From an uncultured archaeon (lineage in GTDB: Archaea; Aenigmatarchaeota; Aenigmatarchaeia; QMZP01; JACQNV01): a DNA stretch of 64,000 nucleotides. The stretch covers positions 210,853-274,852 of the forward strand of contig CAYPFW010000001.1 in the NCBI GenBank assembly GCA_964410585.1, read 5' to 3'. Position 1 is the first letter of the stretch, and each line of letters opens with the position of its first letter. The notes under the pieces are model-generated. The model did no database searches. It had not been told where the DNA came from and saw only the letters and a program-made list of their open reading frames with translations. Shown here piece by piece: positions 5,757 through 39,369 of this stretch. Made by a program: the position numbers and the translations under genes.

Positions 5757-5812
5757 GTCGTGGAAGGCGTTTAAAAAATTTTGGAGTCGAGACGACAAAA
5801 TTTTTAGCCTCC
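5757..5812. repeat. Palindromic intergenic repeat, full copy (GGAAGGCGT-AAAAATTTT-spacer-AAAATTTTTAGCCTCC).
   Basis: Alignment with the other copies. Confidence 0.7.
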
Positions 5813-5843
5813 TGTTTTGCTTAAGCTTTTAGGATAAAAGCTT

Positions 5844-6035
5844 ATGAAAAATAAAAAAGTGGCCTTAGGCATATTGGTTTTATTGGTTCTAGCAATAGCT
5901 GTTTCCGGATGCACATCAAAACCACCAGAAGAAATTAAAAAAGAAGTTGCTAACCAAACAATAGATGTTGTAAAAAGCGTCGACAATGTGCAAAATATTT
6001 TAGACGACATTGACAAAAGTTTGAGTGGGAAATAG
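5844..6035 (+). CDS. Small secreted or lipoprotein-like 63-aa protein with a signal peptide ending in a lipobox-like AVSGC.
   Basis: ORF track; the N-terminal hydrophobic segment is followed by Cys. Confidence 0.35.
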   Translation: MKNKKVALGILVLLVLAIAVSGCTSKPPEEIKKEVANQTIDVVKSVDNVQNILDDIDKSLSGK

Positions 6036-6180
6036 TTTTTATTCGTTTTTTTAAAATTTTACTACTTAATATAATAAATACTTTTACTTTTTCCTGTTTT
6101 AAATGTAAAGTATTTAAGTATGTAAGTATAAAGATATAATACATATAAAAAAATTTTTATATTTTAATGAGTTGGGGGGT

Positions 6181-6939
6181 ATGGGTAGCTGGAAACTGAG
6201 ACCTAGCTATCCAGTGGGCATGGCAGCAAGATATACAGATAATCCAAGAGATCATCTTAGAAGTCTAAGGGGCGATTTGAATCTAAGCTCATATGATACT
6301 TATTCTAATGCAGAATTAGATAAGGCTCTTGAAACAACTGAAAGGGTTTTTGGCGTTCTGAGACTAATTAGCCAAAGAGAAAGGGAACCTAAACAAAGAA
6401 GCGGTTTTAAGGGATTTGTTGACAGAGCAGTAGACACTTATGATAGACTTCAATTAGCAATAAGAGGAGAGACACCTTCAACACCTGGACGCACAGGTAT
6501 ATTGGCAATAATTGGAAGAAAAAATCCAGCATATGAAATATCCGCACCAATGGATAGGCCAAGAGCAATACCAGTAAACGGCAGACCTTTTTTAGATCAT
6601 GGAGTAGAATACATAGTTTATCAATTACAGGGAATGGCCAGATCTGGACCAGGAGAAGTTGACGGTGCATACTGTTTTGATTTGAATGGAAACTTATTTG
6701 ATGTTGGGAGAAGAATAGTAACACCTGCTGAATTTGGATTAAATGGAACAAGCGAGGAAGTGAGAAAAATAAAAGGAACTTTAGGAACAAAACATGAGGC
6801 TGCCGCATTTGCATCTAAGCAGGGTTTGATATCTGTTGCCCTAAGCGAGGAAGTTGGAACAGTGATCACATTTATCGGTGGGAAAGTTATTCCAGACTAT
6901 GTATATAGACCAGAAGGACTAGTGATCCCAGAAAGATAA
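6181..6939 (+). CDS. Divergent DisA_N/DAC-domain (diadenylate cyclase-like) protein.
   Basis: The sequence carries DGA (VDGAYCF), GTKHEAA in the position of the GTRHRAA motif, and SEEVGTV (SEETGxIS). A GGGGGT ribosome-binding site precedes the ATG at 6181; the track start at 6172 is a TTG. Confidence 0.55.
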   Translation: MGSWKLRPSYPVGMAARYTDNPRDHLRSLRGDLNLSSYDTYSNAELDKALETTERVFGVLRLISQREREPKQRSGFKGFVDRAVDTYDRLQLAIRGETPSTPGRTGILAIIGRKNPAYEISAPMDRPRAIPVNGRPFLDHGVEYIVYQLQGMARSGPGEVDGAYCFDLNGNLFDVGRRIVTPAEFGLNGTSEEVRKIKGTLGTKHEAAAFASKQGLISVALSEEVGTVITFIGGKVIPDYVYRPEGLVIPER

Positions 6940-6951
6940 TAGGAGGAACAT

Positions 6952-7233: not shown

Positions 7234-7315
7234 ATTGGTTTCTAACAAACATTGAGAAAATAGTAAAGTTTATATTAGGGAAAAAAGAATATCTATAATT
7301 CATTTGAGGCCCTAT

Positions 7316-7432: not shown

Positions 7433-7489
7433 GCTTTTTCTGTGAAAAAAGTCGTGTCTCCAAGTAACAACGCGAACCTCTAATAGTTC

Positions 7490-7612
7490 ACGAGATTGTG
7501 TGAGCATCAGCGAAACACAAGATGTGCTCACAGCTCATGTGCTGAGGCACATGACATCTCATCATCTTTCGCATTTGGCGAGATGCTGAAATTCTTCGCT
7601 GCTGCTCGAATT
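7490..7612 (+). ncRNA. Candidate structured RNA or terminator module. It is GC-rich with three hairpins (TGTGAGCA/TGCTCACA; TCATGTGC/GCACATGA; CATCTC/GAGATG) and ends in T7.
   Basis: The region sits in an AT-rich intergenic context between convergent genes, and the ORF here (7496..7735) is implausible. Confidence 0.25.
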
Positions 7613-7626
7613 TTTTTACGCCTTCC
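7598..7626. repeat. Palindromic intergenic repeat, half copy (TTTTTTTACGCCTTCCA).
   Basis: Alignment with the other copies. Confidence 0.5.
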
Positions 7627-7628
7627 AT

Positions 7629-8567
7629 CTAATCATTCCCCTGTTCTTTTGGTTCTTGGTCTGATTTTAAAATTGCAGAAGTGTCTTGTAAAACCTCTGC
7701 TGGTGTTATTGCTTGGTTTTGTAAAATGTTTGTAGGATTTTGAGAAACGTCTGTTGGCCTCGGGTCTTGTGTTATTTCAATTGGTTCAACAAAAGCCCTC
7801 ACATAGATCCAATGCAAAACTTCTGCAGATACATTTGCTTGTTTGTTTAACAGTGTTACTAGAGTCCTATCTATTTCAGAATCCCATTCCTCTGCCCCAA
7901 TAAATGCACCTGTTCCATCTTCGCCCATTGGAATTCTTCTCAAAAAATCTGCAGCTGGAAGTACAGTTCTGCTCCCATAATGAGCTAATCTAGCAACTTC
8001 AACTGTTCCTTTGTAAGGGTCTACGCCTCTTAATTTTCCATCAAACTTTAATGGATATTGTGATGAATTTAATCTCTCGCTTTCTTGGACATCCATGTTA
8101 ACTTCTAATTCAATTTCTCTATGAACATCTTGATCCTCACTTCGCTCTGTGTGAGCCGCATGCATATCGCATACTGGGTGGATAGCTTCCCCACATTTTT
8201 CTACAAACAATTTTAGATCCTCTTGTGTTACTTGACCTCTTTGTCTTGCCCTCTCTATTACTTCTATAGCCTCATATGCTTTAGTTTCAGCAAAAAGTGG
8301 TGCAGAATCATCAACAACTACTCGCCTTCCATTACGCAATTCGAAATATGTGTGATGTTCAACTGCAAACCTATCTGCACCTATAGCTCCACGGAAAAGT
8401 GCATCTCTATATCTTTCAAAAAAATCTTTTTCTTCCTCAGGCAAAAAACTAGCAGCTTCCTGTGCGAGCCATTTATGTGTTTTACCATACCAAGCATAAG
8501 AAGTAGAGGGAATCAAAGATAGGAAAACAAAAACACTTGAAACAAAATATCTAAAAGGTCTATACAC
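7629..8567 (-). CDS. Secreted zinc-dependent phospholipase C / S1-P1 nuclease superfamily hydrolase.
   Basis: A signal peptide is followed by a mature N-terminus AWYGKTHKW, matching the W1/H6 pattern, and by downstream His/Asp clusters (HPVCDMHAAH). Confidence 0.45.
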   Translation of the reverse strand: MYRPFRYFVSSVFVFLSLIPSTSYAWYGKTHKWLAQEAASFLPEEEKDFFERYRDALFRGAIGADRFAVEHHTYFELRNGRRVVVDDSAPLFAETKAYEAIEVIERARQRGQVTQEDLKLFVEKCGEAIHPVCDMHAAHTERSEDQDVHREIELEVNMDVQESERLNSSQYPLKFDGKLRGVDPYKGTVEVARLAHYGSRTVLPAADFLRRIPMGEDGTGAFIGAEEWDSEIDRTLVTLLNKQANVSAEVLHWIYVRAFVEPIEITQDPRPTDVSQNPTNILQNQAITPAEVLQDTSAILKSDQEPKEQGND

Positions 8568-8613
8568 GATTTTATATTTGGAAGAGGTTGTTTAAATATA
8601 ACGATGTTATAGA

Positions 8614-10623: not shown

Positions 10624-10655
10624 AAACCTTTTTGAAAAAAGGTTTAATCCAAAAA

Positions 10656-10704
10656 GGAGCCTATTTTTGCTTCACTGCTGTTCGCAAAAATTTACGGCTT
10701 CCAC
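10656..10704. repeat. Palindromic intergenic repeat, full copy, degenerate (GGAGCCTATTTTTG-spacer-AAAAATTTACGGCTTCCAC).
   Basis: Alignment with the other copies. Confidence 0.6.
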
Positions 10705-10791: not shown

Positions 10792-11511
10792 TTAATCCTT
10801 AGCAGGTTTAACATCTATTCCAATCTCTTCTAATTTTTCCTTGAACTTTTTCAAAGCTCTGTGTATGTCTTCGATGCTGTGCGCACCTGTACAAATTATT
10901 TTTCCAGAACTAAACAATAGGAAAGCTACTCTAGGTTCAGAAATTCTGTAAACTAAACCTGGAAATTGTTCTGGCTCGTATTCTGCATTTTCAAGCATGA
11001 AGGCTATTTCTTCCAAATTTATTTTTGCATCTATCTTGCTTGAAGCGACAATATTTTCAATTATTATATCGAATTTTTTTGGAGTTTTTATCCCAACTTC
11101 GCTTATTTTTTCAGCGACTTTTTGCATTGCTGCTTTTGAATTCTCTATACTTTTTGCGCCTGTGCATACGATTTTCCCAGATGAGAATATCAAAGCTGCA
11201 GCCCTTGGGTTTTGTGGCCTGTAAACTAAACCAGGAAACTGTTCTGGCTCGTATTCTGTGTTTTCTATCTCTTCGACGAGTTTTTCTAATGCTATTGTTA
11301 TTCCTAAAGAAGCAAACGAAACAACATTTTCAACATTAATTGTGAATTCGCTCAACCTTTTTCCGCTAGCTGAAAAATTAGAATCTGTTTGTATTGGTTT
11401 TGAATCTGACTTTGTCTCAACTTGAGGCTTGCTGACTTCTTTTTTAGCAACCTTTGCTGGCTTAGCCGATTTCTTAGCAGGCTTAGAAACTTTCTTAGAT
11501 TTTTTGACCAT
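10792..11511 (-). CDS. tbp: TATA-box binding protein with a Lys/Ala/Pro-rich N-terminal extension of about 55 aa.
   Basis: Two direct repeats each contain EYEPEQFPGLVYR...SSGKI(V/I)CTGA, and the N-terminus reads MVKKSKKVSKPAKKSAKPAKVAKK... Confidence 0.9.
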   Translation of the reverse strand: MVKKSKKVSKPAKKSAKPAKVAKKEVSKPQVETKSDSKPIQTDSNFSASGKRLSEFTINVENVVSFASLGITIALEKLVEEIENTEYEPEQFPGLVYRPQNPRAAALIFSSGKIVCTGAKSIENSKAAMQKVAEKISEVGIKTPKKFDIIIENIVASSKIDAKINLEEIAFMLENAEYEPEQFPGLVYRISEPRVAFLLFSSGKIICTGAHSIEDIHRALKKFKEKLEEIGIDVKPAKD

Positions 11512-11724
11512 TGATATCCCCCCATTAACGAAAAGGACTTATGTTATAAGCCCCAACTGGACGAAAAGCGACTATAATATAATCGTTTGCCCCTGACTGA
11601 TAACTGTTTTGAAAGCTAGACTAATAGAATAGTTTATATAATTAATGGAGGAGGTATTTAAATACTATATAAATAGCCAAAATGACCCGATCAGCATTAT
11701 TAATAGCTAAAACCAAATAATCGT

Positions 11725-11898
11725 ATGACAGGCGAACCATCTTTCACATTCAGAGGAAAGAAAGAGACACCAATTTGCCTCAACTGCAAAGGCAAGATGA
11801 GGTTTGTTAGTTCACACAAGCCAAAATATAGGGATGAACACGATGTGTACGAGTGCAAAAAGTGCAAGGTCAATTTCTTCGATTTTTGGTCGTATTAA
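11725..11898 (+). CDS. Small 57-aa zinc-ribbon protein (CLNC...CKKC).
   Basis: Hand translation (MTGEPSFTFRGKKETPICLNCKGKMRF...YECKKCKVNFFDFWSY). It lies between tbp and rpoN and is below the ORF-track size cutoff. Confidence 0.3.
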   Translation: MTGEPSFTFRGKKETPICLNCKGKMRFVSSHKPKYRDEHDVYECKKCKVNFFDFWSY

Positions 11899-11926
11899 AT
11901 TTAGAATTTGTAAAAATTTCACTTTT

Positions 11927-11976
11927 GGAAGGCGTAAAAATTTTCCGAGCAAGAGCGAGAGAAAATTTTAGCCCCC
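11927..11976. repeat. Palindromic intergenic repeat, full copy; the homology extends to 11995 (GGTTTATCAAAAACAGG flank).
   Basis: Alignment with the copy at 39311-39369. Confidence 0.7.
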
Positions 11977-12062
11977 TGTTTTTGATAAACCTTTTTAAGA
12001 AATTGTATAATAGTTTCTTTTGGGATACCTTACCACTTTTCTTTTCTAAAGAAAGGGGGGAG

Positions 12063-12263
12063 CTACTTTTGGAATTTCCCAACAGTTTCAACAAGCTCAA
12101 CGTGTCCTACAAATAGCGATCTGCAGCACAACCTTGTCAAGCCAAATGAATCCAAAACTTTTGCAGGGTCTTCTTTTGCAGCTACTCTTTCCTTAAATTT
12201 GCTGTAATACTGAGAAACAGGCTTGCCACATGTGAAGCATCTTACTGGTATGATCATAGGCAT
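12063..12263 (-). CDS. rpoN: DNA-directed RNA polymerase subunit N (Rpo10/RpoN).
   Basis: MIIPVRCFTCGK...CCR zinc-binding motif; length 66 aa. Confidence 0.8.
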   Translation of the reverse strand: MPMIIPVRCFTCGKPVSQYYSKFKERVAAKEDPAKVLDSFGLTRLCCRSLFVGHVELVETVGKFQK

Positions 12264-12420
12264 ATTTTAGGGTCTTGGGTTTATAAATTTGTTTTGTGCC
12301 AACTTCCAAAATCCATGTTTTCTCCTCTATATACTATATTACATATATCCGAAGACCGAAACATATTTAAAACTTGCTGTTTTTCTACATATGGGTTAAT
12401 AAAGCTTAGTTCAAAGTAAG

Positions 12421-12459
12421 TTGTAAATAGTTGTTATCCATCAGTGACGTTTAATATAA
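12421..12459 (+). promoter_or_regulatory. AT-rich promoter region with TATA-like boxes (TTGTAAATAG, TTTAATATAA) upstream of the giant gene.
   Basis: Sequence inspection only; the transcription start site is unknown. Confidence 0.3.
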
Positions 12460-12471
12460 GTTTTGGCACAT

Positions 12472-15400
12472 ATGTCTCAGAAATCAAACTCAAGTACTAG
12501 AGTTGCCTACATTTTTCTAGCTTTACTAGTATTCGGCCTTATCGCAGGAGCAGTTGCATATCCTGTTCAAATTAATATTTCTTCTAACCAAGCTGGCTTT
12601 ACCACAACAACAATAGTTTGTGGCGACCCTTCTTGTTCTTCATATACAAATTCAAGACAAGACATCCCAACATTAACAAATTCAAATGGCTATTCTATTT
12701 CAGGATCAGGAAAAGTAAACTACATGGAGCTTGACTATAAAGCGTGCTACTTACCACACATGTACAGGCTTCAAATGACAGATGCAACAACAAATGGCCC
12801 ATATTCTGTAACAAGGAATTTCAATCAAAAATCAGATTGTACTTCAACTGTGAATACAGTTCAAGCTTCAAATCCATCACCTTTTGAAAAAACGACAATT
12901 CAAATAAGTACAAATGTCCAAGGTGCTGTTAGTTTCCCAAAAGATGCTAACGGAAATCAATTTGATTTTTCAATGGTCAGTATTCCTAGCGATATAAAAG
13001 ATTTCTATGATACAAAAACAAAAGTTGTTTTAAAGATCAAAGATTCTCAAGGAAGTGTGATATACACTTCACCTGAAAAAGAAGCATATCCTTTAGTGAA
13101 TAAGTCAGAAACTGTTGTTTTTGATTATACACCTCAAATAGACGGACCGTTTACAGCTGAAATAGAGACACAAGTAACAGACTGTATGTGTACTTCTACA
13201 CAACCTATTACAAGTTCACCTGTTTCTTTTTCTGTCCAAGATACAGATCCTGTTGCTAGCTTTTCGTTTGGCACAGTAATCGAAGGACAAGACGCTCAAT
13301 TTACAGACACCTCAACAAGCAACGACGGTTTAACATGGGAATGGAATTTCGGTGACGGAACAGCACTTGATACTAGACAGAATCCTACACACCGATTTTC
13401 AAAAGGCGGAGCTCACCAAGTGACTTTGACTGTAAGAGAAGCAGATGGAGACTCTAATCCAAAAACACAGATAGTAGATGTGCAAAATGTAAATGACAAT
13501 CCTATAATAACTGCTACAATAAACCCAATAACGCTGAATGAAGATTTTGGGACACATGAAGTTGTTGATTTAACAACACTAGAATCAGACGAAGAAGATG
13601 GACCAGCATCTGATGCAAATAATTTGAGGTGGTCAGTTGTCTCTGTTTCAGATCCTTCTCTAATTGATGTTTCAATAGATGTAGGTTCAGAAAAACTTTC
13701 TTTAGTTTCCAAACAAGACAAATTTGGAACAGCTACTGTCACACTTAAACTTTCAGATTCACAAAGCGGAGAGACAACAACATCTTTCAATGTTCAGGTA
13801 AACCAACAAGCAGAGACACAGGGATCGACAACAACAAACACACAAGTATCAGCAGATTCTGTTTTCACAAACTCTCAGGGAACAAACTCAAACATACAGT
13901 CTTCTACAGTGACAGGCTCTACTATCATTGATTCTACTGTCACAAATTCAAACGTCCAAGACTCTTTCATCGACCCATCAACTGTTTCAGGATCAACAAT
14001 AATCAGGTCTAGGATAGTAAACTCTCAAGTTACAAATTCGAACATCACAGACTCCAACATTACAAACATGCAGGTTTCAAATGCGGTTGTTACAAACAAT
14101 GTTTTGCAGTCAGGTACAATTGTTTACAATGGTCAAACATATACAGGATCAATAAGTTTAGCTGAGATCCAAAACACAGCACCTGTTTCAACACAAACAG
14201 TGACACAAATAAGTTGGAACGAAGATTCTTCTGATTCAAGCCTTAATTTGAATACACAATTCTCTGATCCAGAAGGCCAGACACTTTCTTTCTCAAAAAC
14301 AGATCCTTCAAATATTCAAGTTTCAATTTCAGCAAATGGACAAGTGACTTTCACACCAGATACAAATTTCAATGGACAGAGATCAGCTCAATTCACTGCA
14401 ACAGACATATTTGGAAAAACAGTTTCTATTTCAGTTACTTTAAATGTTATTTCACAAAATGATCAACTCTCAATCACAACAACAGCGCCTACAACAGGAA
14501 GCCAAGGACTATTATATACATATGATATAGATGCATCAGATATAGATGGAGACCAACTTACATTTACTTTGCAAGCAGGTGCACCAACTGGAATGACAAT
14601 AAACCCATCAACTGGGCTAATCCAATGGACTCCAACAAACAATCAAGTTGGAAATAATCAAGTGACTGTTCTTGTTTCTGATGGATCAACACCTATCCAA
14701 CAACAATTCACAATATCTGTATCAAATGCAAACGATGCGCCTTCTCTTTCAGCAATTTCAAATCAAAATATAGCAGAAGACTCTACCCTTCAGTTCAATG
14801 TTTCTGCAGATGATCCTGATTTGGTATACGGCGATTCTTTGACATATTCAATAAATGATTCAAGATTCACAATCACAAAAATTTCAAACACTTTAGCTAC
14901 TGTAAGTTTCTCTCCAACAAATTCAGAGGTTGGCACAATATCAGTTTCAGTCACAGTAAAAGACTCTCAGGATTTGACAATCACAAAAACATTTTCAGTT
15001 TTAGTTTCAAATACAAATGATCTTCCTGTGTTGGCAGATGTTTCAAACCAAAATGTATTGGAAGACAGCACACTTCAATTTAATTTGACTGCGTCAGATG
15101 ATGATCTAATACACGGTGATTCTCTTACATATACAGTCAATGATTCTAGATTTACAGTAAATAAAATATCAAACACACTAGCTACTGTTAGCTTCTCTCC
15201 AATAAATTCAGATGTTGGAACTTTCTCTGTTCAAGCAACTGTAACAGATTCTTCAGGACAAACAAGTAAAAAAACTTTCACAGTTACTGTAGTAAATACA
15301 AATGATGCACCAACAGTCACTGTTTTGGAACCAAACGGAGGAGAATTGTGGAATGGAATAAGACAAATAAAATGGACTGCATCTGATGTTGATGTTGGCG

Positions 15401-18400
15401 ACATATTGCTTGTAGACATATTCACAAGTGTTGATGGACAGGTTTTCCAAGTATTAGCAGAAAATGAAACAAATGATGGTGAATTCGATTGGAACACCGA
15501 TCAATCATCAGATTCAACAAATCATAAAGTAAGAATTGAAATAAAAGACGGAACAACAACAGTTTCAGATGATTCAGATTCTGCCTTCAGCTTAGATAAC
15601 TCGGTCCCAAATACAGTTTTCGCTTCGCCTAATGCAGGAAATTATACATCACATCAAAACATAACAGTAACAGCAACAGATCCTAATTTGCAAACAATAA
15701 GCATTTATGTGAATGGTTTACTTGCCAGTTCATCTTCAACATCACCTCTTGTATATTTGCTCACAGACGGTAATCATTCAGTTTATGCAAAAGCAAATGA
15801 CACTTTAGGAAACTCTGTACAAACAGAAACTAGAAACATTTTCATCGACAGTGTCGTGCCTTCTGTATCTTTCATCTCACCGACACCTTCAACAGGATTA
15901 TTTGCAAACCAAAATCAAACAATAAACATCACAGGAACAGATAACAACCTGGCATCTGTTGGTATAACATTTGTTGGAGAAGGTTCAGGAGGATCTGGTG
16001 GAGGTAGTGGAGGAAGTGGGGCTTCTGTTGGTGTCTCTGTGAACCCTGGAGAAACAACAAAAACACTTTCAACTACTCTCAGTGATGGAAATTATACATA
16101 CTTTGGAACAGCAAGAGATATTTTAGAAAACAACGCTCAAACAGAAACAAGGACATTATTTATCGACACAATAAACCCAACAATACAGTTTGAAAACCCA
16201 ACTCCAGCAAATTTGGCGACTACTAATTCAAACCAAATAATAAATGTAAGCGGCTCAGACACAAATTTAGTTTCAATAGAAATATTTGTTGATGGCACCT
16301 TGAAGAACACATGTACATCTAACCTCTGTTCATATTCAATTGATGTTTCTCAACTTTCTGATGGACCTCACACATTCAATGCAACAATAATAGATATTGT
16401 TGGAAGCAAAACATCAACAGAAACAAGGACATTAGTTGTTGATAAAACAGCCCCATCAATACAATTTGTTTCCCCAACACCTTCAGATCTTTCTGGAGTA
16501 TCAGGAACGAAAATAATAAATGTAACAGCTTCTGATCTTAGTGCTTTTAATATAGTTATATACATAGATGGTCAAAACGTGACAACATGCTCATCATCTC
16601 TGTGTTCATTTGAGTGGAACACAACAACTTTTGCTGACGGTTCACATAGCATAAATGCAACATCTTCAGACAACGTTGGAAACCAAAATTCAACAGAAAC
16701 AAGGACATTTACAATTGATAACACTGCTCCATCAATTTCTCTTGTTTCCCCTGCAAATGATACTTTATCAAATAGCCAAACTCAAAACTTCATTTTTGCA
16801 GCAAGCGATGCTATATACACATCAGTAAGTTGTAATTTGTACATAAACAATAACTTAAGTGGTTCGAACTCATCTGTCCAATCAGGTGTAAACACAACAA
16901 TAACAAACACTTCTGTTCCAGAAGGCACAAACACATGGTATGTGCAGTGTGCAGATGCACTTGGAAATACAAACACATCTGAAATGCGGACTTTGAAAAC
17001 AGATTATACAAGCCCTCAAATTTCAAGCCACTCATTTTCTGGTCTCTTCCCTCTTACAGGAGTTAGTGATGGCGGATATTTCTCACCAGCAAACACAGAT
17101 GGACAATTCGATTCAGTATCGCTAACAGTCAATACATCTGAAGAGGTTATTTTCGGCCCTCAGTCTATTCAAATAGTTAATTCATCAGGACAAGTTGTAA
17201 ACTCCTTTGATGGCCCAGGAGAAACTTCAAGATCAATATTAAGAACATGGTTTGGAAATGATAGTGTAGGAAACATACTTCCAGATGGCGAATATACAAT
17301 AAATATCACATTCACAGATTTGGCAGGAAACACAAAAACAGAAATTCTGAAAAATTTGGAAGCTGTAAATGACTTATTTATTATTGATAATACACCCGTG
17401 AATGTTATTCTAGGAAATGACAGAACAGTAAACGAGGGAGCTCTGCAAACATTTGATGGTTCAAATTCAACAGACACAGGCTCTGAAATCAACACCTCAT
17501 CTTTCGTCTGGAACTTCGGCGATAGCCAATCAGCAACAGGACAAACAGCCAACCACACATACTCACAAAATGGAACCTATACAGTGAGATTGAATGTCAC
17601 AGACAATGTTGGAAACACAGGAACAAACACAATTGTTGTCACAGTAAATGATTTAGCTCCTACATCATCTTTCACATTTAGCCCTTCAACAGGAATATTT
17701 GAAAACACAACAACTGTACAGTTCAATTCAACATCAACAGGATATGATACACCTCTGACATATTTCTGGGACTTTGGTGATTTATCAACTTCAACACAGG
17801 AGAACCCAACACACGTTTTTGCAAACAATGGAACATACACAGTAAACTTAACTGTGACAGATGCAGATGGATCGACAAACACAAGTTCGCAGACTTTGAA
17901 TATCTTGGATAACTCGCCAACAGCAAACGCAGGACCAGACCAAACAGTGAATGAAGGCTCTATTGTTTTCTTTGATGGCTCAAACTCAACATCAAGCCCA
18001 GATTCAATATCTTCTTACTTCTGGGACTTTGGAGATGGAACAAATTCAACAGGACAATCAGTTAACCATACTTATGTAAATAATAATACATACACAGTCA
18101 CATTGACTGTCACAGATTCAGATGGAAGTACAAACTCAGATACACTTCAAGTTGCAGTGAATGACTTGGGTCCGACAGCTAACTTTACTTGGTCCCCAGA
18201 ACCGCAGGACGAAGACCTTCCAGTACAATTCAACGACACATCAACATTTGTTGCAGATAATATAGTTTCTTGGTCTTGGAACTTTGGAGACGGTTCTCCA
18301 ATAAACACAACGCAGAATCCAACACACGTTTATGGAAACCAAAACACAACAAGAATATTCCAAGTTACTCTTACAATAATAGATTCAGATGGAAGTATAA

Positions 18401-21400
18401 GCTCAAAATCAAGCAACATAACAATCAATGCAGTGAATGATCCTCCTGTTGTTTCAACAATACCAAGCATAATTTTCAATGAGGACAGTTTCAATGATAG
18501 TTTGGTTCTTTCAAGCTTTGTTTCAGATGTAGACAATTCAGTGAGCGAGATAAATTGGTCAAGTTCACCAACACAAAATTTGACAATTTCAATAGACAAC
18601 ACAACAAAGAGACTTAATGTTTCTGCTGCTCCAAACTGGTTTGGAAATGAAACGATTGTTTTGACGGCAACAGATGGACAGAACCAAACACAGAGCAACA
18701 CAATAACTGTTATTGCAAATTCAGTAAACGACGCCCCTGTTATTTCAACAACTGCACAAACATCTGCAACAGAAGATTCTTTGTATTCATATGATGTAAA
18801 TGCAACAGATGTTGAAAGCGATACACTTTTGTTCACTCTGGAATCGGCGCCTTCTGGAATGACAATTGATTCCTCAACTGGTATAATATCTTGGACTCCA
18901 AACAACACACAAGTTGGTTCAAACAATGTGTCTGTACAAGTATCTGATGGAAATAGTGGAATTGGTGAACAAAATTTCACAATTGTTGTTGCAAACAATG
19001 CACCAATAATTTCAAACCCAGGAACACAATCTGCAACAGAGGATTCTCAGTTTTCAATAGACATAAACAGCACAGATGAAAATGAAGGATTGGTTTTCAG
19101 TTTGATAAGCCCACCATCTGGAATGTCGATAAACTCAACAACAGGATTGATTTCTTGGACACCTACAAATACGCAAGTTGGCACAACAACATTAAATGTT
19201 TCGGTAGATGACGCTCATGGTGGAACAGCAACAACGACATTTGATATAAACGCTGGAAATAATCCAACAACAATCACAACAAATGCAACAACAACAGCAA
19301 CAGAAGATACTTTGTATACATATGATGTCAACTCAACAGATGAAGGTCAAGGAGACTTTTTCAATTTAACAACTTTCCCACAAGGAATGACAATAGACAA
19401 TTCAACTGGATTGATTTCTTGGACACCTCTAAACAATCAAGTTGGTTCAAACAATGTGGAAGTTGAAGTAGACGACGGAAAAGGAGGAAGCGATACACAA
19501 GCCTTCAGTATATCTGTTTCAAACAATCCCCCTTTGATCGCAACAACAGCTCTAACATCATCAACAGAAGATTCTTTGTATGAATATGATGTAAACTCAA
19601 CAGATGAAGGTCAAGGACTTGTGTATAGTTTAACAACTTCTCCATCTGGGATGACAATAAACCAAACAACAGGAATGATAACCTGGACACCAATCAATTC
19701 TCAGGTTGGAATAAATTCAGTCACTGTTCTGGCAAACGACACAAAAAGTGGAACAACAACACAATCCTATTCACTAATTGTTTCAAATAATCCCCCTGTT
19801 TTCACTTCAACGGCGCCTACAACAGCAACAGAAGATTCTGAATATTTGTACGATGCAAATTCAACAGATGAAGGAGATGGAGCGACATTCTCTTTGACAA
19901 CATCACCGGCAGGCATGACAATAAATTCAACAACAGGATTAGTTAATTGGACACCTCTGAACAACCAAGTTGGATCAAATTCAGTTGTCATAAGAGTAAA
20001 TGATGGAAAAGGTGGACAGAAAAGTCAGTCATTCAGTATTTCGGTTTCAAACAATCCGCCAACAATAACAAGTTCAGCTGCTCTAAATGCAACAGAGGAT
20101 TCTTTGTATACATATGATGTCAATTCAACAGATGATGGACAAGGAACAATAACATATAGCTTGGCTTTGAGTCCAAGTGGAATGACAATTGATTCTTCTA
20201 CTGGTTTAATTTCATGGACACCTTTGAATAATCAAGTTGGCACAAACAATGTGTCTGTGCAAGTATCAGACGGCAACAGCGGTGTCGGAGAACAGAACTT
20301 CACAATTACAGTTTCAAACACAAATCCAACAATTTCCTCAACTGCATCGACAACTGCTACTGAAAACATTCAATATACATACGATGTAAACTCAACAGAT
20401 GACGGACAAGGAACAATTTCTTACAGCCTGCTTTCATCTGTTTTTGGTATGTCAATAAACCAGTCAACAGGTCTAATATCTTGGACACCAATTAACACAC
20501 AAGTTGGTCCAAACAATGTTTCGATACAAGTATCTGATGGAAATGGTGGAACAGATACACAAAATTTCACAATTGTAGTTGCAAATTCAAATCCAACAAT
20601 CACATCATCTCCTGTTGTTTCAGTAACAGAAGATTCATTATACACATATGATGTAAACAGTGATGAAGATGGGGAAGGAGCAATAAGTTATCTTTTATTA
20701 CTCTTACCTTCAGGAATGTCAATTAACTCAACAACAGGCGTGATAACATGGACACCGACAAACGAGTATGTTGGTCCAAACAATGTGTCTGTACAAGTAT
20801 CTGATGGAAATGGTGGAGTTGGCGAACAAAATTTCACAATTGTTGTTGCAAACAATCCTCCAATAATTTCAGATCCTGGAATACAATCAGCAACAGAGGA
20901 CTCTCTTTTCACAATTGATATAAATTCAACAGATGAAGGTCAGGGATTGCTGTTCTATTTGGAAAGTGCACCAACTGGAATGACAATAAATGAAACAACT
21001 GGCTCGGTTTCTTGGACACCTCTAAACAATCAAGTTGGTTTGAACACTGTTAATGTGTCTGTAAACGATTGGCAAGGTGGTGTTTCAAGTCTTACATTCG
21101 ACATTAATGTTCTAAACAATGCACCATTGATAACAACAAATGCAACAATTTCTGGAGTAGAAGACTCATTGTATACATATGATGTTAATTCAACAGATGA
21201 GGGACAAGGAGCAACATACAATTTGACAACTTTCCCACAAGGAATGACAATAGACAATTCAACTGGATTGATTTCTTGGACACCTCTAAACAATCAAGTT
21301 GGTTCAAACAATGTGGAAGTTGAAGTAGATGATGGAAACGGTGGAACAAACACACAAACATTTAGCATAAGTGTTTCAAACACAAACGATAATCCTGTTC

Positions 21401-26596: not shown

Positions 26597-26653
26597 ATCT
26601 CTTTTCAATTTTCATTATGTTCTAAATTTCCCATTTTATCAAATATATAGGTT

Positions 26654-27133
26654 TCAAGGCAATCTAATCTCAGAAAGCAGACTTATGTATTTATGTAGCC
26701 TGTTCAATTCACTTTCTAGGATTTCCAAAGTTTTTTTTGTGTTTTCTGTCTGTTCGCCCTTCATTTTTGAAAGCTGGTCTTTTGCTGCCTCAAAATCTAT
26801 TAGAGACTCTTTTATACTTTTTTCAACTTTTAGAGTGATTGCATTTTTCAAGCATTCCAAAAGGTCACCTGCAAGAGAAATATACAATTGTCTATCGCCT
26901 TCTTTTTTAACCCTTTTTATCACACTAAGAAGTTCGAGAAGATCCAAGCTTAGAGAAACCATGCCAGCTGAATATCCTGTTTCTTTTGCAAGCTCCTGTA
27001 AGGACACTGGCTTTCCTTTGACCAGAAGGACACCTATTAGCTTCCCGTGCAAAGGTGAATAACCAATAGACCGCGCAACCTCTGCGAATGTGTTGAAAAT
27101 CTTCCTCTCTATATCTTTTTCAGGGCTTGTCAT
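26654..27133 (-). CDS. Winged-helix transcriptional regulator (MarR/TrmB-like).
   Basis: HTH segment LQELAKETGYSAGMVSLSLDLLE; C-terminal coiled coil. Confidence 0.5.
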   Translation of the reverse strand: MTSPEKDIERKIFNTFAEVARSIGYSPLHGKLIGVLLVKGKPVSLQELAKETGYSAGMVSLSLDLLELLSVIKRVKKEGDRQLYISLAGDLLECLKNAITLKVEKSIKESLIDFEAAKDQLSKMKGEQTENTKKTLEILESELNRLHKYISLLSEIRLP

Positions 27134-27948
27134 ATTTTAAATAATTGTTTGGCATTTGAATAGAAAACCTTTTCCCAATGTTGTTTTGGGACGACTTTTT
27201 TTATTATTTCTATATAGTCTTTCATTTTCACCAATGGCCAATCTGAACCGTAAATTATTTTGTTAAATGCACAAGAAAAATTAAAGACAAAATCCATATC
27301 TAATTTCAGATAGTCTATGTTCATTTTTTTCACGTCACCTATGACAAGTCCTGAAATATCTGTATAGACATTTTGATTTTTGTATATGATTTCTGCGGCA
27401 TCTCTTATCCACGGATTTCCTAAATGAGCAATTACAAAATTCACGCCAGGATTATCAACGGCTAATTCATCGATAATAAATGGGTGGGAATATTTTAATT
27501 TTGGTGGAGAAAGTTGTATAGAGGGCGACATCCAGACATCACCAGAATGTATAATTACAGGGGCCTTGTATTTTTCAGCCAACTTATAGAAAGGTTTGTA
27601 TATTTCATCAGTTGGATAATAGTGTGTATATCCTGGATAAATCTTCATTCCAATGGCTGTTCTTTCTGACAATGCTTTTTCAGTAAGTAAAATTTCTTTT
27701 TTTCCACATTTAACTGGGTTTAATCCAACTACTATTTCTAGACTATCTAATTCGTGTTTTTGTCTCAGTGCTAATTCAAGTTTCATTGGGGTTGGATCTC
27801 TAAATTTCTCGCTCGATGTTATAGAAATTGCTTTTACAACATTATTTAATTTTAGCTCCTGTCTAAAATCTTCTATAGAAAAGGGTTTATTTTCAGGACT
27901 TCCATCAGCCCCAAAGGTTGTATGCATATGAGCATCTATAATTTTCAT
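27130..27948 (-). CDS. Metal-dependent TIM-barrel amidohydrolase (amidohydrolase_2-like).
   Basis: N-terminal IDAHMH motif with His/Asp residues downstream; 4-nt overlap with the downstream regulator gene. Confidence 0.6.
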   Translation of the reverse strand: MKIIDAHMHTTFGADGSPENKPFSIEDFRQELKLNNVVKAISITSSEKFRDPTPMKLELALRQKHELDSLEIVVGLNPVKCGKKEILLTEKALSERTAIGMKIYPGYTHYYPTDEIYKPFYKLAEKYKAPVIIHSGDVWMSPSIQLSPPKLKYSHPFIIDELAVDNPGVNFVIAHLGNPWIRDAAEIIYKNQNVYTDISGLVIGDVKKMNIDYLKLDMDFVFNFSCAFNKIIYGSDWPLVKMKDYIEIIKKVVPKQHWEKVFYSNAKQLFKI

Positions 27949-31239: not shown

Positions 31240-31280
31240 ATAGCCTTTTCCGGGAGTTAACAACTTCCAATAGATACCGA

Positions 31281-31304
31281 AACTGGTCTGCAGACCAGTT
31301 TCCA
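31281..31304. terminator. Perfect 24-nt palindrome GAAACTGGTCTGCAGACCAGTTTC between convergent genes.
   Basis: Seen directly in the sequence. Confidence 0.4.
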
Positions 31305-31350
31305 GCCATTGACGGCTACCATACCCAAAAATCAAAAATTTACAACTTCT

Positions 31351-31425
31351 AAAAATTTACGCCTTCCACGGGTTTTAATTCTTCGTTTTTTAGAAATTAT
31401 AACTTCATCTTCGGAAAATTTTACT
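31351..31425. repeat. Palindromic intergenic repeat, rearranged or partial copy (AAAAATTTACGCCTTCCAC ... AAAATTTTACTCCTCC).
   Basis: Alignment with the other copies. Confidence 0.5.
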
Positions 31426-33139: not shown

Positions 33140-33373
33140 TTAAACGCTAGCTTCTTTTTTTGGCATGTGGCCTTTTTCAAATTTTAAAGTCCACTTCAAT
33201 CCTTTGCCTTCTCTTCCCTTTTTCCAGTTTGTCTGACACTTGGAATTGCAAAAATTGTAGATATCTCCACTTTTTTTGACAAACATTTTTCCTCTTCCCA
33301 ATTTCAATGTGTTTCCACACAAACTACACTTAGCCATAACCTTTTGTCCCAAAATAGGGAACCTGTTAGACAA
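33140..33373 (-). CDS. rpl24e: Ribosomal protein L24e.
   Basis: C-x2-C...C-x3-C zinc ribbon; length and sequence (FPILGQKVMAKCSLCGN...FCNSKC) match L24e. Confidence 0.85.
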   Translation of the reverse strand: MSNRFPILGQKVMAKCSLCGNTLKLGRGKMFVKKSGDIYNFCNSKCQTNWKKGREGKGLKWTLKFEKGHMPKKEASV

Positions 33374-33438
33374 TTGTTTCCGGTTCCTCTAACCCCCCAC
33401 TTGTAAACTTTTGCTCAAGCTTTTTCTAAAAGCTTGAC

Positions 33439-33490
33439 AGGAGCCTAAAAATTTCCTCACCGCGATTCGTAAATTTTTCACGGCTTCCAC
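33439..33490. repeat. Palindromic intergenic repeat, full copy (GGAGCCTAAAAATTT-spacer-AAATTTTTCACGGCTTCCAC).
   Basis: Alignment with the other copies. Confidence 0.7.
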
Positions 33491-35984: not shown

Positions 35985-36055
35985 ACTATATTATCTTTTG
36001 TTATAGATAAATATAGAAAACAAAGAGTTTATACCAAGCCAACGAAAATTAAATT

Positions 36056-36583: not shown

Positions 36584-36663
36584 AACACTATAAAGAAGGA
36601 TAGTTTATAAAGCTTTTTATTTTGTGACTAGTTAATAGTTAAATGAAATTTATCAACAACAAA

Positions 36664-37860
36664 TTAGACAATATTTTTCAATTTCTCCAAAACCTCAAAA
36701 CCAATTTCCTCTGATTTTTCAGGGGTTCTAGCTTGAACCAAAAACCATCCAAGTGGTTTTGTCCCAATTGGCGATTTTTGGAAATTTTGTCCTGGTTTTC
36801 TGTTCAGGACAAATTTTTTGACTTCTTTTATTTGCTTTATCTCATCCAAATTTATCTTTTTTATTTTTCCGGATTTTTCTGGCCAGATTTCAACTGCTGT
36901 ACAAGCTTTTTTGAATTTTCTTTCTGTGTTTGGTTTTTGACCCAAACAAATGTCAAGAGCAAGTTCATCCAAATCTATTCCAGAGGAATATTTCTCCATT
37001 TCAGATCTATATCCACCAATCCTTGCTGCCATTTCTAATATTTTAGGGCCTTCTTTTGTATAGATGAGCTCAGGATGAACAGGAATATTGTCTAAACCCA
37101 GAGCTTTGATTCCTTGTGCTGAAACAGAAAGAATTTTTTCCTGATATTCTTTTGGTAGCCTTGTGGGTGTTGTCCTAGAAATAAGATGAAAACCTTCTCC
37201 TCCTAAATCTTGTGTTGAAACAATATCAGCTATCCCTAAATGAACAACCTTTCCATTAAAAACAAAAGAAGTTGTTGTGTACTGTTTTCCTTGCAAAAGC
37301 TCTTCTGCAAAAATTTCAGATTTTATCCCCAAAGCTTCTCTGAAAAGGTTTGTTTTCGAATTTTGTATTTTTCCCAAACAAAATTTGTATTTTTTTGAAA
37401 GATCTTTTTTGTTTTTTACCAACTGTATATATCTGCTTTTTGCACCTGTGTTTGGTTTTAACAAAAACGGGAAATCTAATTTTGTTCGGCTAGTTATTTT
37501 TTGGTATTTTGGGCAGGGAACAGATTTTTTTTGAAAACAGTTTCTCATTCTAATTTTGTCCCTGGCATCTAGGCAAGCTTCCAAAGAGGGTCCCGGAAGG
37601 TTTAAACTATCACAAATTGCACCCAAAACAGGTATATAGGGTTCGAATCTTGTTATTGCGCCGTCTATTCCAACTTTTTCCAAAAAAGAAAGAATTTTTG
37701 AAATTTCAAATGGATCGAAATCCAGGCATTTGTCAAAAATAAGTTTTTCTTTTTTGCTTGGATTTTTTTTCAGAAGAAAAATTTCATATCCTCTTTTCTT
37801 GGCTGGTTCAATGTGATTTATTTTGGACGAGTTATTTCCAATAAATAAAATTCTTTTCAT
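36664..37860 (-). CDS. ATP-grasp domain ligase of unknown specificity.
   Basis: Its length and the divergent pairing with a PurD-like ATP-grasp gene support the call; the assignment is moderate. Confidence 0.45.
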   Translation of the reverse strand: MKRILFIGNNSSKINHIEPAKKRGYEIFLLKKNPSKKEKLIFDKCLDFDPFEISKILSFLEKVGIDGAITRFEPYIPVLGAICDSLNLPGPSLEACLDARDKIRMRNCFQKKSVPCPKYQKITSRTKLDFPFLLKPNTGAKSRYIQLVKNKKDLSKKYKFCLGKIQNSKTNLFREALGIKSEIFAEELLQGKQYTTTSFVFNGKVVHLGIADIVSTQDLGGEGFHLISRTTPTRLPKEYQEKILSVSAQGIKALGLDNIPVHPELIYTKEGPKILEMAARIGGYRSEMEKYSSGIDLDELALDICLGQKPNTERKFKKACTAVEIWPEKSGKIKKINLDEIKQIKEVKKFVLNRKPGQNFQKSPIGTKPLGWFLVQARTPEKSEEIGFEVLEKLKNIV

Positions 37861-37986
37861 AATGTGGAAAAAATATTTTTGTAAATACTTAAATAACTTG
37901 AAGACAATATTATATTATCTTTTCATTTAAGAAAGCTTATACCGTTTTCTTTTGGGTACGGTATTTTTTTGAAAAGAAAGATATAT

Positions 37987-39294
37987 ATGAATGGCGAAAA
38001 TAAAATCTCACTTCCAAAAAAGAAGTTTTTGTTTGTATCACAAGAAAGTTTGAGCGGAGATTTAGCTTGGCAAGTGAAAAGGGAAGGGCATGAAGTAAAA
38101 ATATTTATAAAATCAGATGAAGATAAAGATGTTTACGACGGTTTTTTGGAAAAGGTTGATGATTGGCAAAAACACAAAGACTGGGCAGATGTTGTTGTCT
38201 TTGACGACACAGGTTTTGGAGAAATTGCGGATAAATTTAGAAAAGAAGGCAAGCTTGTTGTTGGCAGTAGCACTTATACAGATAAATTAGAAGAAAATAG
38301 GGAATTTGGGCAACAGGAAATGAAGGCTGTTGGAATGAGCACTTTGCCAAGTTTTAATTTTACAAACTTTGATGATGCGATTAAATTTCTAAAAGAAAAC
38401 CCTGGAAGATATGTTTTCAAGCCAAGCGGAAACATCACCTCAGAAAACAAAGACCTTCTTTTTATCAGCCGAGAGGAAGATGGAATAGATTTGCTTGAAG
38501 TTTTGCTCCACAATAGAAAGGCATGGTCTAAAAAAATTGCTTCTTTCCAACTTCAGAAATACGCATCTGGTGTTGAGGTTGCAGTTGGCGCTTTTTTTAA
38601 TGGAAAGGATTTCATAAAACCTGTTTGCATTAATTTTGAGCACAAAAGATTGTTTCCTGGGGAAACCGGACCAATGACAGGGGAAATGGGAACAAGCATG
38701 TATTTCACAAACGACAATATGATTTTCAGCAGCACGCTTGCGAAAATGAAAGATAAACTAGCAGAATCAAAATATGTTGGATACATTGACATCAATTGTA
38801 TTGCAAATGCAAAAGGAATTTATCCATTAGAATATACAGCGAGATTTGGCTACCCCACGATAAGCATACAAATGGAAGGCATTCAAACACCAATGGGCGA
38901 ACTGCTTTACAAAATGGCTGCTGGGGAAAATTTTGAGATGAAAGTGAAAAAAGGATTTATTGTTGGCGTTGTTGTTGCTGTTCCACCATTTCCTTTTGAT
39001 GACAAGAGGACATTTGCAATATACAAAGACTCTTCTATTCTTTTCAAGAAACCAACTTTGGATGGGATTCACATGGGCGATGTAAAATTAGTGGAAGACG
39101 ACTGGCATTTGGCTGGAAATTCTGGATATGCGCTTGTTGTGACTGGTTCTGGAAATACAATGGACGAAGCAAGAAAGCAGGCTTATAAGAGGATCGAAAA
39201 CATTATTTTGCAGAACATGTTCTATAGGACTGATATAGGTGTGAGATGGTTCAAAGACAGCGATCTTTTGCAGACTTGGGGCTACCTATATTGA
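37987..39294 (+). CDS. PurD-like ATP-grasp ligase (phosphoribosylamine-glycine ligase family, divergent).
   Basis: GETGPMTGEMGTSMYF matches the PurD GPNTGGMGA motif, and EYTARFGYP matches EFNCRFGDPE. The N-terminal GSGGREHA motif is replaced. The track start is TTG at 37969 and the ATG is at 37987. Confidence 0.5.
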   Translation: MNGENKISLPKKKFLFVSQESLSGDLAWQVKREGHEVKIFIKSDEDKDVYDGFLEKVDDWQKHKDWADVVVFDDTGFGEIADKFRKEGKLVVGSSTYTDKLEENREFGQQEMKAVGMSTLPSFNFTNFDDAIKFLKENPGRYVFKPSGNITSENKDLLFISREEDGIDLLEVLLHNRKAWSKKIASFQLQKYASGVEVAVGAFFNGKDFIKPVCINFEHKRLFPGETGPMTGEMGTSMYFTNDNMIFSSTLAKMKDKLAESKYVGYIDINCIANAKGIYPLEYTARFGYPTISIQMEGIQTPMGELLYKMAAGENFEMKVKKGFIVGVVVAVPPFPFDDKRTFAIYKDSSILFKKPTLDGIHMGDVKLVEDDWHLAGNSGYALVVTGSGNTMDEARKQAYKRIENIILQNMFYRTDIGVRWFKDSDLLQTWGYLY

Positions 39295-39310
39295 AACCTT
39301 TTAACATAAA

Positions 39311-39369
39311 AGGTTTATCAAAATAGGAGGCTAAAAATTTACTCGACTCGCAAATTTTTTACGCCTTCC
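39311..39369. repeat. Palindromic intergenic repeat, full copy with conserved flank (GGTTTATCAAAATAGGAGGCTAAAAATTT-ACTCGACTCGC-AAATTTTTTACGCCTTCCA).
   Basis: Alignment with the other copies. Confidence 0.7.

Follow-up and report, generated by a model that had tools for sequence, protein, structure and literature searches.

Does a short hairpin repeat that recurs at the gene boundaries of an archaeal genome mark those boundaries as a fixed signal, or does it move between them? The question is raised by a 64,000-nucleotide (nt) stretch of contig CAYPFW010000001.1 (assembly GCA_964410585.1, positions 210,853 to 274,852; the window below), in which a preliminary description of the sequence had pointed out five full and two partial copies of a palindromic repeat. 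Small hairpin repeats are familiar in bacteria and poorly described in archaea, and in the literature we found none described for DPANN lineages. Here the repeat is shown to be a polar, two-hairpin unit of approximately 85 nt that is restricted to a narrow archaeal lineage, differs in its sites between relatives, and occurs both in intergenic DNA and, in relatives of the window, inside tRNA introns. On the whole, the unit is probably a hairpin cassette, small and non-autonomous, that is mobile or spreads by recombination.

The host is archaeal. The window has a G+C content of approximately 37% and encodes MCM, TBP, L7Ae, S28e, L24e and RNA polymerase subunit N (RpoN), and the named homologues of its MCM protein come nearly all from Candidatus Aenigmarchaeota (DPANN). 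A bacterial frame, with Shine-Dalgarno sequences and rho-independent terminators, does not fit a DPANN archaeon, and an artefact of a shared Shine-Dalgarno or promoter consensus is excluded. Shine-Dalgarno/anti-Shine-Dalgarno pairing was likewise rejected, given the archaeal host, most of whose genes are probably leaderless.

Detection and anatomy of the unit

The pattern TGGAAGSCGTNWWWWWWWN{6,28}WWWWWTAGSCYCCT has exactly five matches in the window, at 5761-5813(+), 10655-10703(-), 11926-11977(+), 33439-33489(-) and 39325-39370(-), and none in 100 dinucleotide-preserving shuffles, while the arm motif TTTACGCCTTCCA with at most two mismatches has 11 window matches against 1.4 expected. A strict-pattern scan of metagenomes returned 36 matches at 32 loci (these loci, like the other contigs compared, carry L numbers below), which together with the window make 39 distinct copies, 34 of them beyond the window. 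A looser first pattern, TGGAAGSCGTN{22,48}TAGSCYCCT, matched 112 loci, almost all of them chance matches in bacteria; only L081 and L084, both from the metagenome-assembled genome (MAG) CAZVWU01, were real. A covariance model of the 39 copies, run over the window with filters off, scored the five full copies at 56-71 bits (E 3e-14 to 8e-11), added one decayed copy (7579-7629) and one marginal copy (31326-31370), and found no copy in the window between 40 and 64 kb; the model also located further copies, including variants, in the same metagenome loci. All five full copies of the preliminary description are thus present where it had placed them. Its partial copy at 7598-7626 is real, but is the 5' part of the decayed full-length copy at 7579-7629(-) rather than a partial one, and of its partial copy at 31351-31425 the arm at 31351-31370 is real, the remainder looking like a decayed long variant beside another hairpin.

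With all copies oriented to read 5'-TGGAAGSCGT..., the unit consists of a 50-nt hairpin of irregular build (HP1), an 8-nt linker rich in U, of the form (G)TTTTGNT, and a second hairpin (HP2), a perfect palindrome of 9-11 bp such as TAAGCTTTTG-nnn-CAAAAGCTTA or TAAACCTTTT-nnnn-AAAAGGTTTA. The base of HP1 is a 6-bp G+C helix, GGA(A)GSC/GSCUCC, with a bulged A. Above it lie an asymmetric internal loop with an extra GU or GUUU on the 5' side, an A/U helix of 8-10 bp and two further pairs, and the upper part is made up of a near-invariant tandem G.A/A.G (approximately 37 of 39 copies), a 2-bp helix and a tetraloop such as CGAA or GGGA. The edges are sharp: in all-against-all comparisons with 150-nt flanks, similarity begins 0-3 nt from TGGAAG and stops 30-36 nt past ...CCT, which is the end of HP2. 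A conserved 5' extension resembling the right half of HP2 was rejected as part of the unit, being found in some subfamilies only and not position-specific. The apex varies in minimal variants, among them the L147 copy at 8976, where it is reduced to GCGAAGC, and in three long-form variants (L146, L133, L139), which carry an extra apical hairpin of approximately 40 nt, TTGGAAAnnnn...nnnnTTTCGGTATC.

Several features of the first account change accordingly. The size of approximately 50-70 nt given there had overlooked HP2; the extended flank said to be common to the copies at 11927 and 39311 is real and consists of the linker and second palindrome of the unit. The arms do form a hairpin as inverted complements, but imperfectly, each copy folding at -12 to -17 kcal/mol. 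The CGACTC noted in the spacer is no general feature, the near-invariant one being the tandem GA...GA. The window copies are as follows, where G-C or C-G type is the state of the S:S pair in the base of HP1, and aa denotes amino acids and ORF an open reading frame.

5761..5813, + strand: HP1 of copy 1, G-C type, 30 nt past the stop codon of an 859-aa gene (3151-5730); 70.7 bits, E 2.8e-14, fold -14.8 kcal/mol
5814..5844, + strand: linker GTTTTGCT and HP2 TAAGCTTTTA-gga-TAAAAGCTTA of copy 1, whose final A also opens the ATG of a 63-aa lipoprotein-like ORF (5844-6035)
10655..10703, - strand: HP1 of copy 2, C-G type, 88 nt past the stop codon of TBP (gene 10792-11511); 55.8 bits
10623..10654, - strand: linker TTTTGGAT and HP2 TAAACCTTTTT-tc-AAAAAGGTTTA of copy 2, ending at the A of the MCM start codon (10623)
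11926..11977, + strand: HP1 of copy 3, G-C type with one A.C mismatch in the base, 28 nt past the stop codon of a 57-aa Zn-ribbon ORF (11725-11898) that is convergent with RpoN (12063-12263, - strand); 63.1 bits
11978..11999, + strand: linker and half HP2 of copy 3, GTTTTTGAT AAACCTTTTTAAG, a palindrome without its right half
33439..33489, - strand: HP1 of copy 4, C-G type, 35 nt past the stop codon of S28e, splitting the conserved L7Ae-S28e / L24e cluster; 68.6 bits
33415..33438, - strand: HP2 of copy 4, TCAAGCTTTT-aga-AAAAGCTTGA, after a 1-nt linker and followed by the promoter-like box and leader hairpin of L24e
39325..39370, - strand: HP1 of copy 5, G-C type with a short apex, 2 nt past the stop codon of a methyltransferase (gene 39373-40131); 61 bits, fold z -3.1
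39294..39324, - strand: linker ATTTTGAT and HP2 AAACCTTTTA-tgt-TAAAAGGTTT of copy 5, with its outer base doubling as the third base of the TGA that ends the converging purD-like gene (37969-39294, + strand)
7579..7629, - strand: copy 6, decayed, with an intact 5' arm and a degenerate 3' arm, 1 nt past the stop codon of gene 7629-8567; 23.7 bits, E 0.0026
31326..31370, - strand: copy 7, a marginal remnant that keeps no more than the 5' arm GTGGAAGGCGTAAATTTTT; 12.5 bits, E approximately 1

Within the window HP2 is found solely beside HP1, in four of the five full copies, copy 3 retaining half of it. Copy 7 adjoins a different hairpin (approximately 31278-31312) that resembles the apical insert of the long-form copies in relatives.

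Conservation of pairing

The covariation of the arms is strongly supported, and what is conserved is pairing rather than sequence. RNAalifold predicts HP1, and 9 of the 15 pairs that it gives show compensatory changes. In the named HP1 structure, 11 of 18 pairs are altered on both sides and 95.0% of cells are paired, against 79.5 +/- 1.0% after shuffling (none of 500 shuffles reaching the observed value) and 38-62% when the partners are slid. The point at which the A/U helix switches from A to U shifts in step on both arms. The S:S pair, both positions of which the search pattern left free, is C-G in 21 copies, G-C in 18 and mismatched in none of the 39, and both states coexist in the window (G-C in copies 1, 3 and 5, C-G in copies 2 and 4). 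This flip is unusually frequent and has left no mismatched intermediate among the 39 copies; it is also uncoupled from the rest of the sequence, as among copy pairs that differ at no more than five positions other than alignment columns 9 and 52, 17 have the same state and 17 different ones. Recurrent compensatory substitution, conversion or template switching may be the source of the flip. For HP2, at least eight different stem sequences occur, each with perfect complementarity along the 9-11 bp counted, and in the imperfect stems the mismatch is G.G, C.C or C.A, never G.T. A modest excess of G.U over A.C pairs, together with the tandem G.A, favours the forward strand as the folded strand.

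Distribution and turnover among relatives

The lineage that carries the unit is narrow. Copies were found in the MAG CAZVWU01, an uncultured archaeon in GTDB, and in the contigs of close relatives, while relatives with approximately 69% MCM identity have no copy in 59 kb (covariance model, filters off) and a scan of a viral collection gave none. Every window copy is closer to a copy in another genome, beside unrelated genes, than to any other in the window, and near-identical members of a subfamily adjoin unrelated genes in different genomes.

Individual sites also differ between the window and its relatives at 89-90% protein identity, which are represented by contigs from different assemblies. 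L148 has no unit upstream of MCM; in L152 and L153 an extra 224-aa gene lies in place of the unit at the purD/methyltransferase site; and L153 has one unit directly 3' of L7Ae that belongs to a subfamily other than that of window copy 4. Another comparison is with L129, which is syntenic with window 26188-27610. Exactly between two genes that in the window overlap by ATGA (site 27130), it has 126 nt of additional sequence in which a unit lies. With this insert, the upstream protein becomes two residues longer and ends at a new stop codon, and the downstream ATG abuts HP2. The junction AAAAT|...GGTTTAT|ATGAC permits a 2-bp AT duplication in this one filled/empty comparison, the 126-nt insert exceeding the unit. 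Presence/absence differences of the kind expected of a small non-autonomous repeat, one of the options first considered, are found among relatives, the 69% ones included, and may be gains or losses.

The reading of the unit as a mobile or spreading cassette is favoured because its edges are sharp, its lineage is narrow, its sites turn over and near-identical copies lie at unrelated loci, and further because it nests with other hairpins and its copies occupy only harmless sites, that is gene ends, intergenic gaps and spliced introns. Such a cassette would survive at harmless sites, among them the 3' ends of genes, intergenic DNA and tRNA genes, and any terminator, promoter or splice-helix role would be incidental or co-opted.

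A number of observations weigh against this reading. The pairs of the hairpins could have been kept without selection, as template switching within quasi-palindromes can produce compensatory changes (PMC8794818). Orientation to neighbouring genes is a tendency only (Fisher p 0.2), and none of the units is flagged by a bacterial-type terminator consensus scan. Genes are locally rearranged where L148 and L152 differ from the window, so that these are not clean empty sites; the indel between L129 and the window could be a gain or a loss, as the nearest amidohydrolase homologue, only 52% identical and with a different neighbour, is no usable outgroup; and no clear target-site duplication was found, although the L129 junction may hold one of AT. 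The unit's two ends form no inverted repeat with one another, and Pfam scans of 44 window ORFs found no transposase or gene resembling a REP-associated tyrosine transposase (RAYT) in the window. Finally, every tRNA-intron copy is in relatives and none in the window, and the tRNA genes transcribe the strand opposite to that favoured for folding.

Gene boundaries and candidate expression signals

All seven window copies lie 1-90 nt past a same-strand stop codon, in agreement with the earlier placement within approximately 100 nt; the proximity is visible for all seven because the Zn-ribbon ORF, S28e and RpoN were recognised. The location between convergent genes that had been described for several copies applies to copies 3, 5, 6 and 7, and copies 1, 2 and 4 lie between tandem genes. 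Over all copies, crude ORF calls give 67 gene boundaries that face a unit, of which 44 are gene ends, with 25 ends and 9 starts on the HP1 side and 19 ends and 14 starts on the HP2 side, counts that are approximate, small genes being easily missed. The unit is very often flush with a functional boundary at its HP2 end. There it abuts a same-strand ATG in approximately ten copies, the start codons of MCM and of the 63-aa lipoprotein-like ORF taking their A from the last base of ...GCTTA, and an opposite-strand stop codon in approximately six, in several of which the TAA is formed by the first three bases of HP2.

Two kinds of candidate signal can be read in the unit. Runs of 4-6 T occur on both of its strands, and most copies have a T4-T5 run past the G+C base of HP1; of the oligo-T flanks once ascribed to the hairpin on both strands, a consistent run is found after the hairpin on one strand only. 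Judged from sequence, these U-tracts plausibly give the unit archaeal terminator signals on both strands. As to promoters, ordinary window genes have a TATA-like box (ATTTAAAC, (A)TTTAAAC or CTTTATAAAC) ending 19-22 nt before the ATG, and therefore most window mRNAs are probably leaderless. The unit contains TTTTG(A/C/G)TTAA(A/G)C, as GATTAAAC or GCTTAAGC, ending 17-20 nt before its 3' end, so that the linker and left half of HP2 (TTTTGATTAAAC, TTTTGCTTAAGC) resemble the local TATA box at 17-20 nt before an abutting ATG. By this resemblance the unit would carry a putative TATA-like promoter signal (TTTTGNTTAAR) in the forward orientation. A leaderless gene whose ATG abuts HP2 would thereby keep a promoter, and a unit beside such a start would survive only when it supplies a promoter at the right distance. 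The exact ends on start codons, stop codons and exon ends suggest a portable cassette for gene boundaries in a genome that is leaderless and very compact.

The same facts can be accommodated by a fixed cis-acting signal of gene boundaries that is not mobile, with HP1 and its U-tract as hairpin-assisted terminator or 3'-end protector and the linker with HP2 as promoter module, multiplied by selection for a common factor-binding structure and gained or lost by ordinary indels only. Such a signal would account for the placement of all seven window copies no more than 90 nt past a same-strand stop codon, for the 25:9 excess of gene ends on the HP1 side, for the T4-T5 run after the G+C base, for a TATA-like box at the usual distance from abutting ATGs and for the maintained pairing of HP1. 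It is at odds with the occurrence of both orientations to flanking genes, for instance in L140, where a unit lies antisense between the tandem genes FtsZ and NUDIX, with its lack at most window genes, including all of those between 40 and 64 kb, and with its absence from the relatives with approximately 69% MCM identity. Nor does it predict nearly identical units at unrelated loci or copies on the opposite strand in tRNA introns. We regard a fixed signal as the less probable explanation, if the likeliest of the rivals considered here.

Copies inside tRNA introns

With default settings, ARAGORN found no tRNA gene in the window or in 22 loci (approximately 190 kb), which is odd for archaeal DNA, and gene calls in these genomes are therefore probably incomplete. 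When introns were allowed, the window still yielded none, and in L116 a tRNA-Gly(CCC) gene was found with an entire unit inside its intron, on the strand opposite to the orientation of the unit. Standard tRNA finders thus miss the tRNA genes that bear the unit. The following cases were recognised.

L116: tRNA-Gly(CCC), intron at 37/38; removing 100 nt from the first HP2 base gives a perfect cloverleaf in no-intron mode
L132: tRNA-Gly(UCC), intron in the D-loop, GTCTAG|...GGGACAA|TGGTA; removing 101 nt gives a perfect cloverleaf
L121: tRNA-Arg(CCT), intron in the T-loop, from a splice-variant scan
L147: tRNA-Leu(CAA), intron in the D-loop, from a splice-variant scan
L123: tRNA-Gly(CCC) with two introns, one at 37/38 and a D-loop intron without a unit, by eye and by similarity to L116

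The unit thus accounts for most of an intron of approximately 100 nt in four or more tRNA genes and at three positions. All of these tRNAs lie on the same relative strand, HP2-first, and the 5' exon ends exactly where HP2 starts. A bulge-helix-bulge motif is readable by eye in L116 (helix TTCC/GGAA, bulges CA|T and AC|A), in L132 (helix GTCT/GGAC, bulges AG|T and AA|T), in L147 (helix GTCT/AGAC) and in L123, and is not clear in L121. The HP2 stem starts immediately past the bulge of the 5' splice site; standing at the place of the outer helix, it would explain the flush exon junction. Those segments of the intron with which the exon pairs (GGAA, GGAC, AGAC) do not belong to the repeated unit and are particular to each tRNA.

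A cassette that had entered a tRNA gene would be transcribed HP2-first and removed as the bulk of the intron, its HP2 stem being a possible outer helix of the bulge-helix-bulge motif, and would survive there only if it can be spliced. Insertion at a tRNA site whose flanks are able to form a 4-bp helix would be rescued by the splicing endonuclease and leave a new intron. It is possible, and proposed here only tentatively, that the unit is in this way the vehicle of tRNA-intron gain in the lineage, a mobile cassette with an intergenic reservoir in which HP2 supplies the helix beside the 5' splice-site bulge. If true, this would provide a concrete, sequence-defined agent of 'tRNA intron transposition'. 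One sequence-defined unit in two settings, intergenic DNA and introns at three tRNA positions, is in any case a testable candidate for the gain of archaeal tRNA introns, an open question since the findings in Thermoproteales discussed below.

The reverse history, in which the unit is primarily an archaeal intron element born in tRNA introns, with HP2 as a piece of the splice motif, and the intergenic copies have escaped or are RNA-processed, the tRNA splicing endonuclease excising them from longer transcripts, is more doubtful. It would draw on the same four or more tRNA genes and three positions, with the unit HP2-first, flush with the 5' exon and a bulge-helix-bulge readable in three, and on the introns of similar sequence in different Thermoproteales tRNAs (PMC4090602). 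Against it, flank complementarity suited to a bulge-helix-bulge occurs in 16 of 39 intergenic copies, which is no excess over 13.5 +/- 2.4 in controls, and the ORFs on either side of the antisense copies of L137 and L140 are each a complete gene and no exon, so that an mRNA intron was rejected as well. The location of the exon-pairing parts outside the unit and the lack of any tRNA gene in the window also speak against an origin as an intron element.

Protein-binding alternatives

The palindromes might instead be double-stranded DNA sites for a dimeric DNA-binding protein, be it a regulator or a nucleoid or boundary protein. Perfect Watson-Crick palindromes in HP2 whose mismatches are never G.T would suit such a site, as would the overlap of HP2 with the region from TATA box to start in abutting genes. 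The half-sites nevertheless co-vary, from AAGC/GCTT to AACC/GGTT and from GGC/GCC to GCC/GGC, which is predicted by strand pairing and not by recognition by one protein, and HP1 retains asymmetric bulges and non-palindromic G.A pairs; a dimer site is improbable on these grounds. A protein-binding small RNA motif in HP1, with a kink-turn (K-turn) or K-loop that L7Ae would bind crowning the stable hairpin, brought to mind by the tandem GA...GA, by the sequences CUGA...CGAGG or GCGA...UGAGC of many copies, reminiscent of D'/C' boxes, and by the copy within the L7Ae-S28e-L24e cluster, is hardly credible and was rejected on covariation, since Watson-Crick covariation on both sides of the G.A (columns 29-36 and 30-35), with two pairs above it that covary (A-U/G-C; U-A/G-C/C-G), places the G.A pairs inside a continuous helix and leaves no 3-nt bulge or open loop, and since the apex is dispensable (the GCGAAGC copy of L147; the shortened window copy 5) and Rfam gave no match even at lax thresholds.

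Comparison with known systems

No Rfam family matched the window at the gathering score, and at E values up to 5-10 nothing relevant was found on eight copy-bearing loci or in window 11500-12500. Among other candidates tried on the aligned sequences, a group II intron domain 5 was rejected, as its AGC triad is AGG in 18 copies, and an origin-recognition box and a CRISPR repeat were dropped, the copies being dispersed and an array absent, respectively. A mini-ORF (V/M-E-G-V...) from GTGGAAGG was also rejected, its spacer lengths not being multiples of 3 and its stop codons falling at varying places.

The transposing tRNA introns of Thermoproteales are short. Their 'tRNA intron transposition' (Fujishima et al. 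2010, as summarised in PMC4090602) is the closest described phenomenon to the one considered here: similar introns are found in different tRNAs, and their spread is thought to take place at the DNA level by a mechanism given there as unknown. According to the same summary these introns are spliced by way of a bulge-helix-bulge motif, as is predicted for the unit-bearing ones of this study. The shared part is here a unit of approximately 85 nt with two hairpins, more often intergenic, in a DPANN host, and the exon-pairing part of each intron is not in the repeat. In the literature, no report was found of a Thermoproteales intron sequence that also occurs in intergenic DNA.

[quoted passage not shown] Like REP sequences and the bacterial interspersed mosaic elements (BIMEs) built of them, the unit is a short, imperfect extragenic hairpin found mostly 3' of genes and between convergent genes, with structure conserved above sequence and at times with head-to-head pairs, two units sharing one HP2 in L122. 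REP sequences are bacterial, 20-40 nt long and G+C-rich, whereas the unit is archaeal, with an A/U-rich HP1 of 50 nt and an obligatory second palindrome. The REP-like identity first suggested is not supported, there being no GTAG/CTAC at the foot, which reads (C/A)GTGGAAGSCGT ... TAGSCTCCT, and no RAYT (a Y1 HUH transposase whose gene REP sequences usually flank) among the 44 window ORFs. Prokaryotic MITEs such as the Correia elements of Neisseria resemble the unit in being non-coding, approximately 100 nt long, intergenic and polymorphic in presence, and can bring promoter- or terminator-like signals to their neighbours, as the unit putatively does (PMC10969869). The unit differs in lacking terminal inverted repeats, a clear target-site duplication and an identified parent insertion sequence, and a reading as a classical MITE is not supported: its ends, TGGAAGSCGT and ...CAAAAGCTTA, are not reverse complements, each hairpin being internal to one end.

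The known archaeal U-tract terminators, which are assisted by aCPSF1/FttA, share with the unit runs of 4-6 U, here on both strands, just 3' of coding sequence, and differ in needing no conserved hairpin and in forming no repeated sequence family (PMC8716108). With bacterial intrinsic terminators the unit shares the U4-5 run after the HP1 base; the archaeal host and the consensus scan do not fit.

Other hairpins and minor observations

Several small hairpin families seem to coexist in these genomes and to nest in one another. A second family is (T)TGGAAA-stem-loop-stem-TTTCGGTATC. It occurs by itself in the window at approximately 31278-31312, between convergent genes, and is nested in the HP1 apex of the long-form copies (L146 2194-2282, L133 1545-1634, L139 421-521); by eye, it is also present within an ARAGORN-called tRNA-Glu intron of L147 (c6325-6483). 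A third repeated hairpin, CGTGTCTCG-CAGAGTGCGTTG-GACACGAG with its variants, follows units with a truncated HP2 (L145 1813-1850, L153 in reverse complement at approximately 1-60, L125, and L135 13950-14000), and it looks as if this hairpin had been inserted into HP2 or had replaced it.

Some non-coding stretches near the units are conserved as well. One of 72-79 nt (window 7489-7567, - strand; L145 1837-1907; L125 3292-3365) is 81-90% identical between genomes and adjoins units in either orientation. Its minus strand, ...AUGAUGA-12 nt-CUCA...CUGA, is a candidate box C/D small RNA, and the 46-aa ORF (7488-7628) that it overlaps is probably spurious. Upstream of L24e there is a conserved leader (window 33338-33414, - strand; L133 1747-1793; L145 2487-2544) with a promoter-like box AAAAGTTTACAAG, a hairpin GAGGAACC...GGTTCCCT and ATTTTGGGACAAAAGGTT-ATG, the last part of which resembles the 3' end of HP1 with half of HP2. 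The 3' flank of RpoN (window 12004-12066) is 87-93% identical to stretches of L146 and L127, unusually high for non-coding DNA there.

In three genomes the exon-like sequence TTGCCGAGGTGGCAGAGTGG abuts HP2 (L084 approximately 5900-6260, - strand; L147 in reverse complement at approximately 3300; L122), and the flank TTGCCGAGGTGGCAGAGTGG|HP2 of these three matched no tRNA or Rfam family. Approximately 100 nt past it lie GCGCTCGCCTTGAGTTCGATG... and a region with weak box C/D matches (E 0.04), and the L147 version has extra small palindromes. The locus is probably another interrupted non-coding RNA gene.

Two regions of the window stand out for other reasons. A 4056-aa ORF (12463-24633, + strand) consists of many tandem repeat units of approximately 264 and 285 nt and, with PKD and He_PIG domains in the counterpart of a relative (L150), is probably a giant surface protein. 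The region 40212-58712, a long run of ORFs without Pfam matches and without a copy of the unit, may be an integrated element; a pair of 490-aa paralogues (49598-52553) lies in it, as does a topoisomerase-IB/integrase-like gene (55880-56932).

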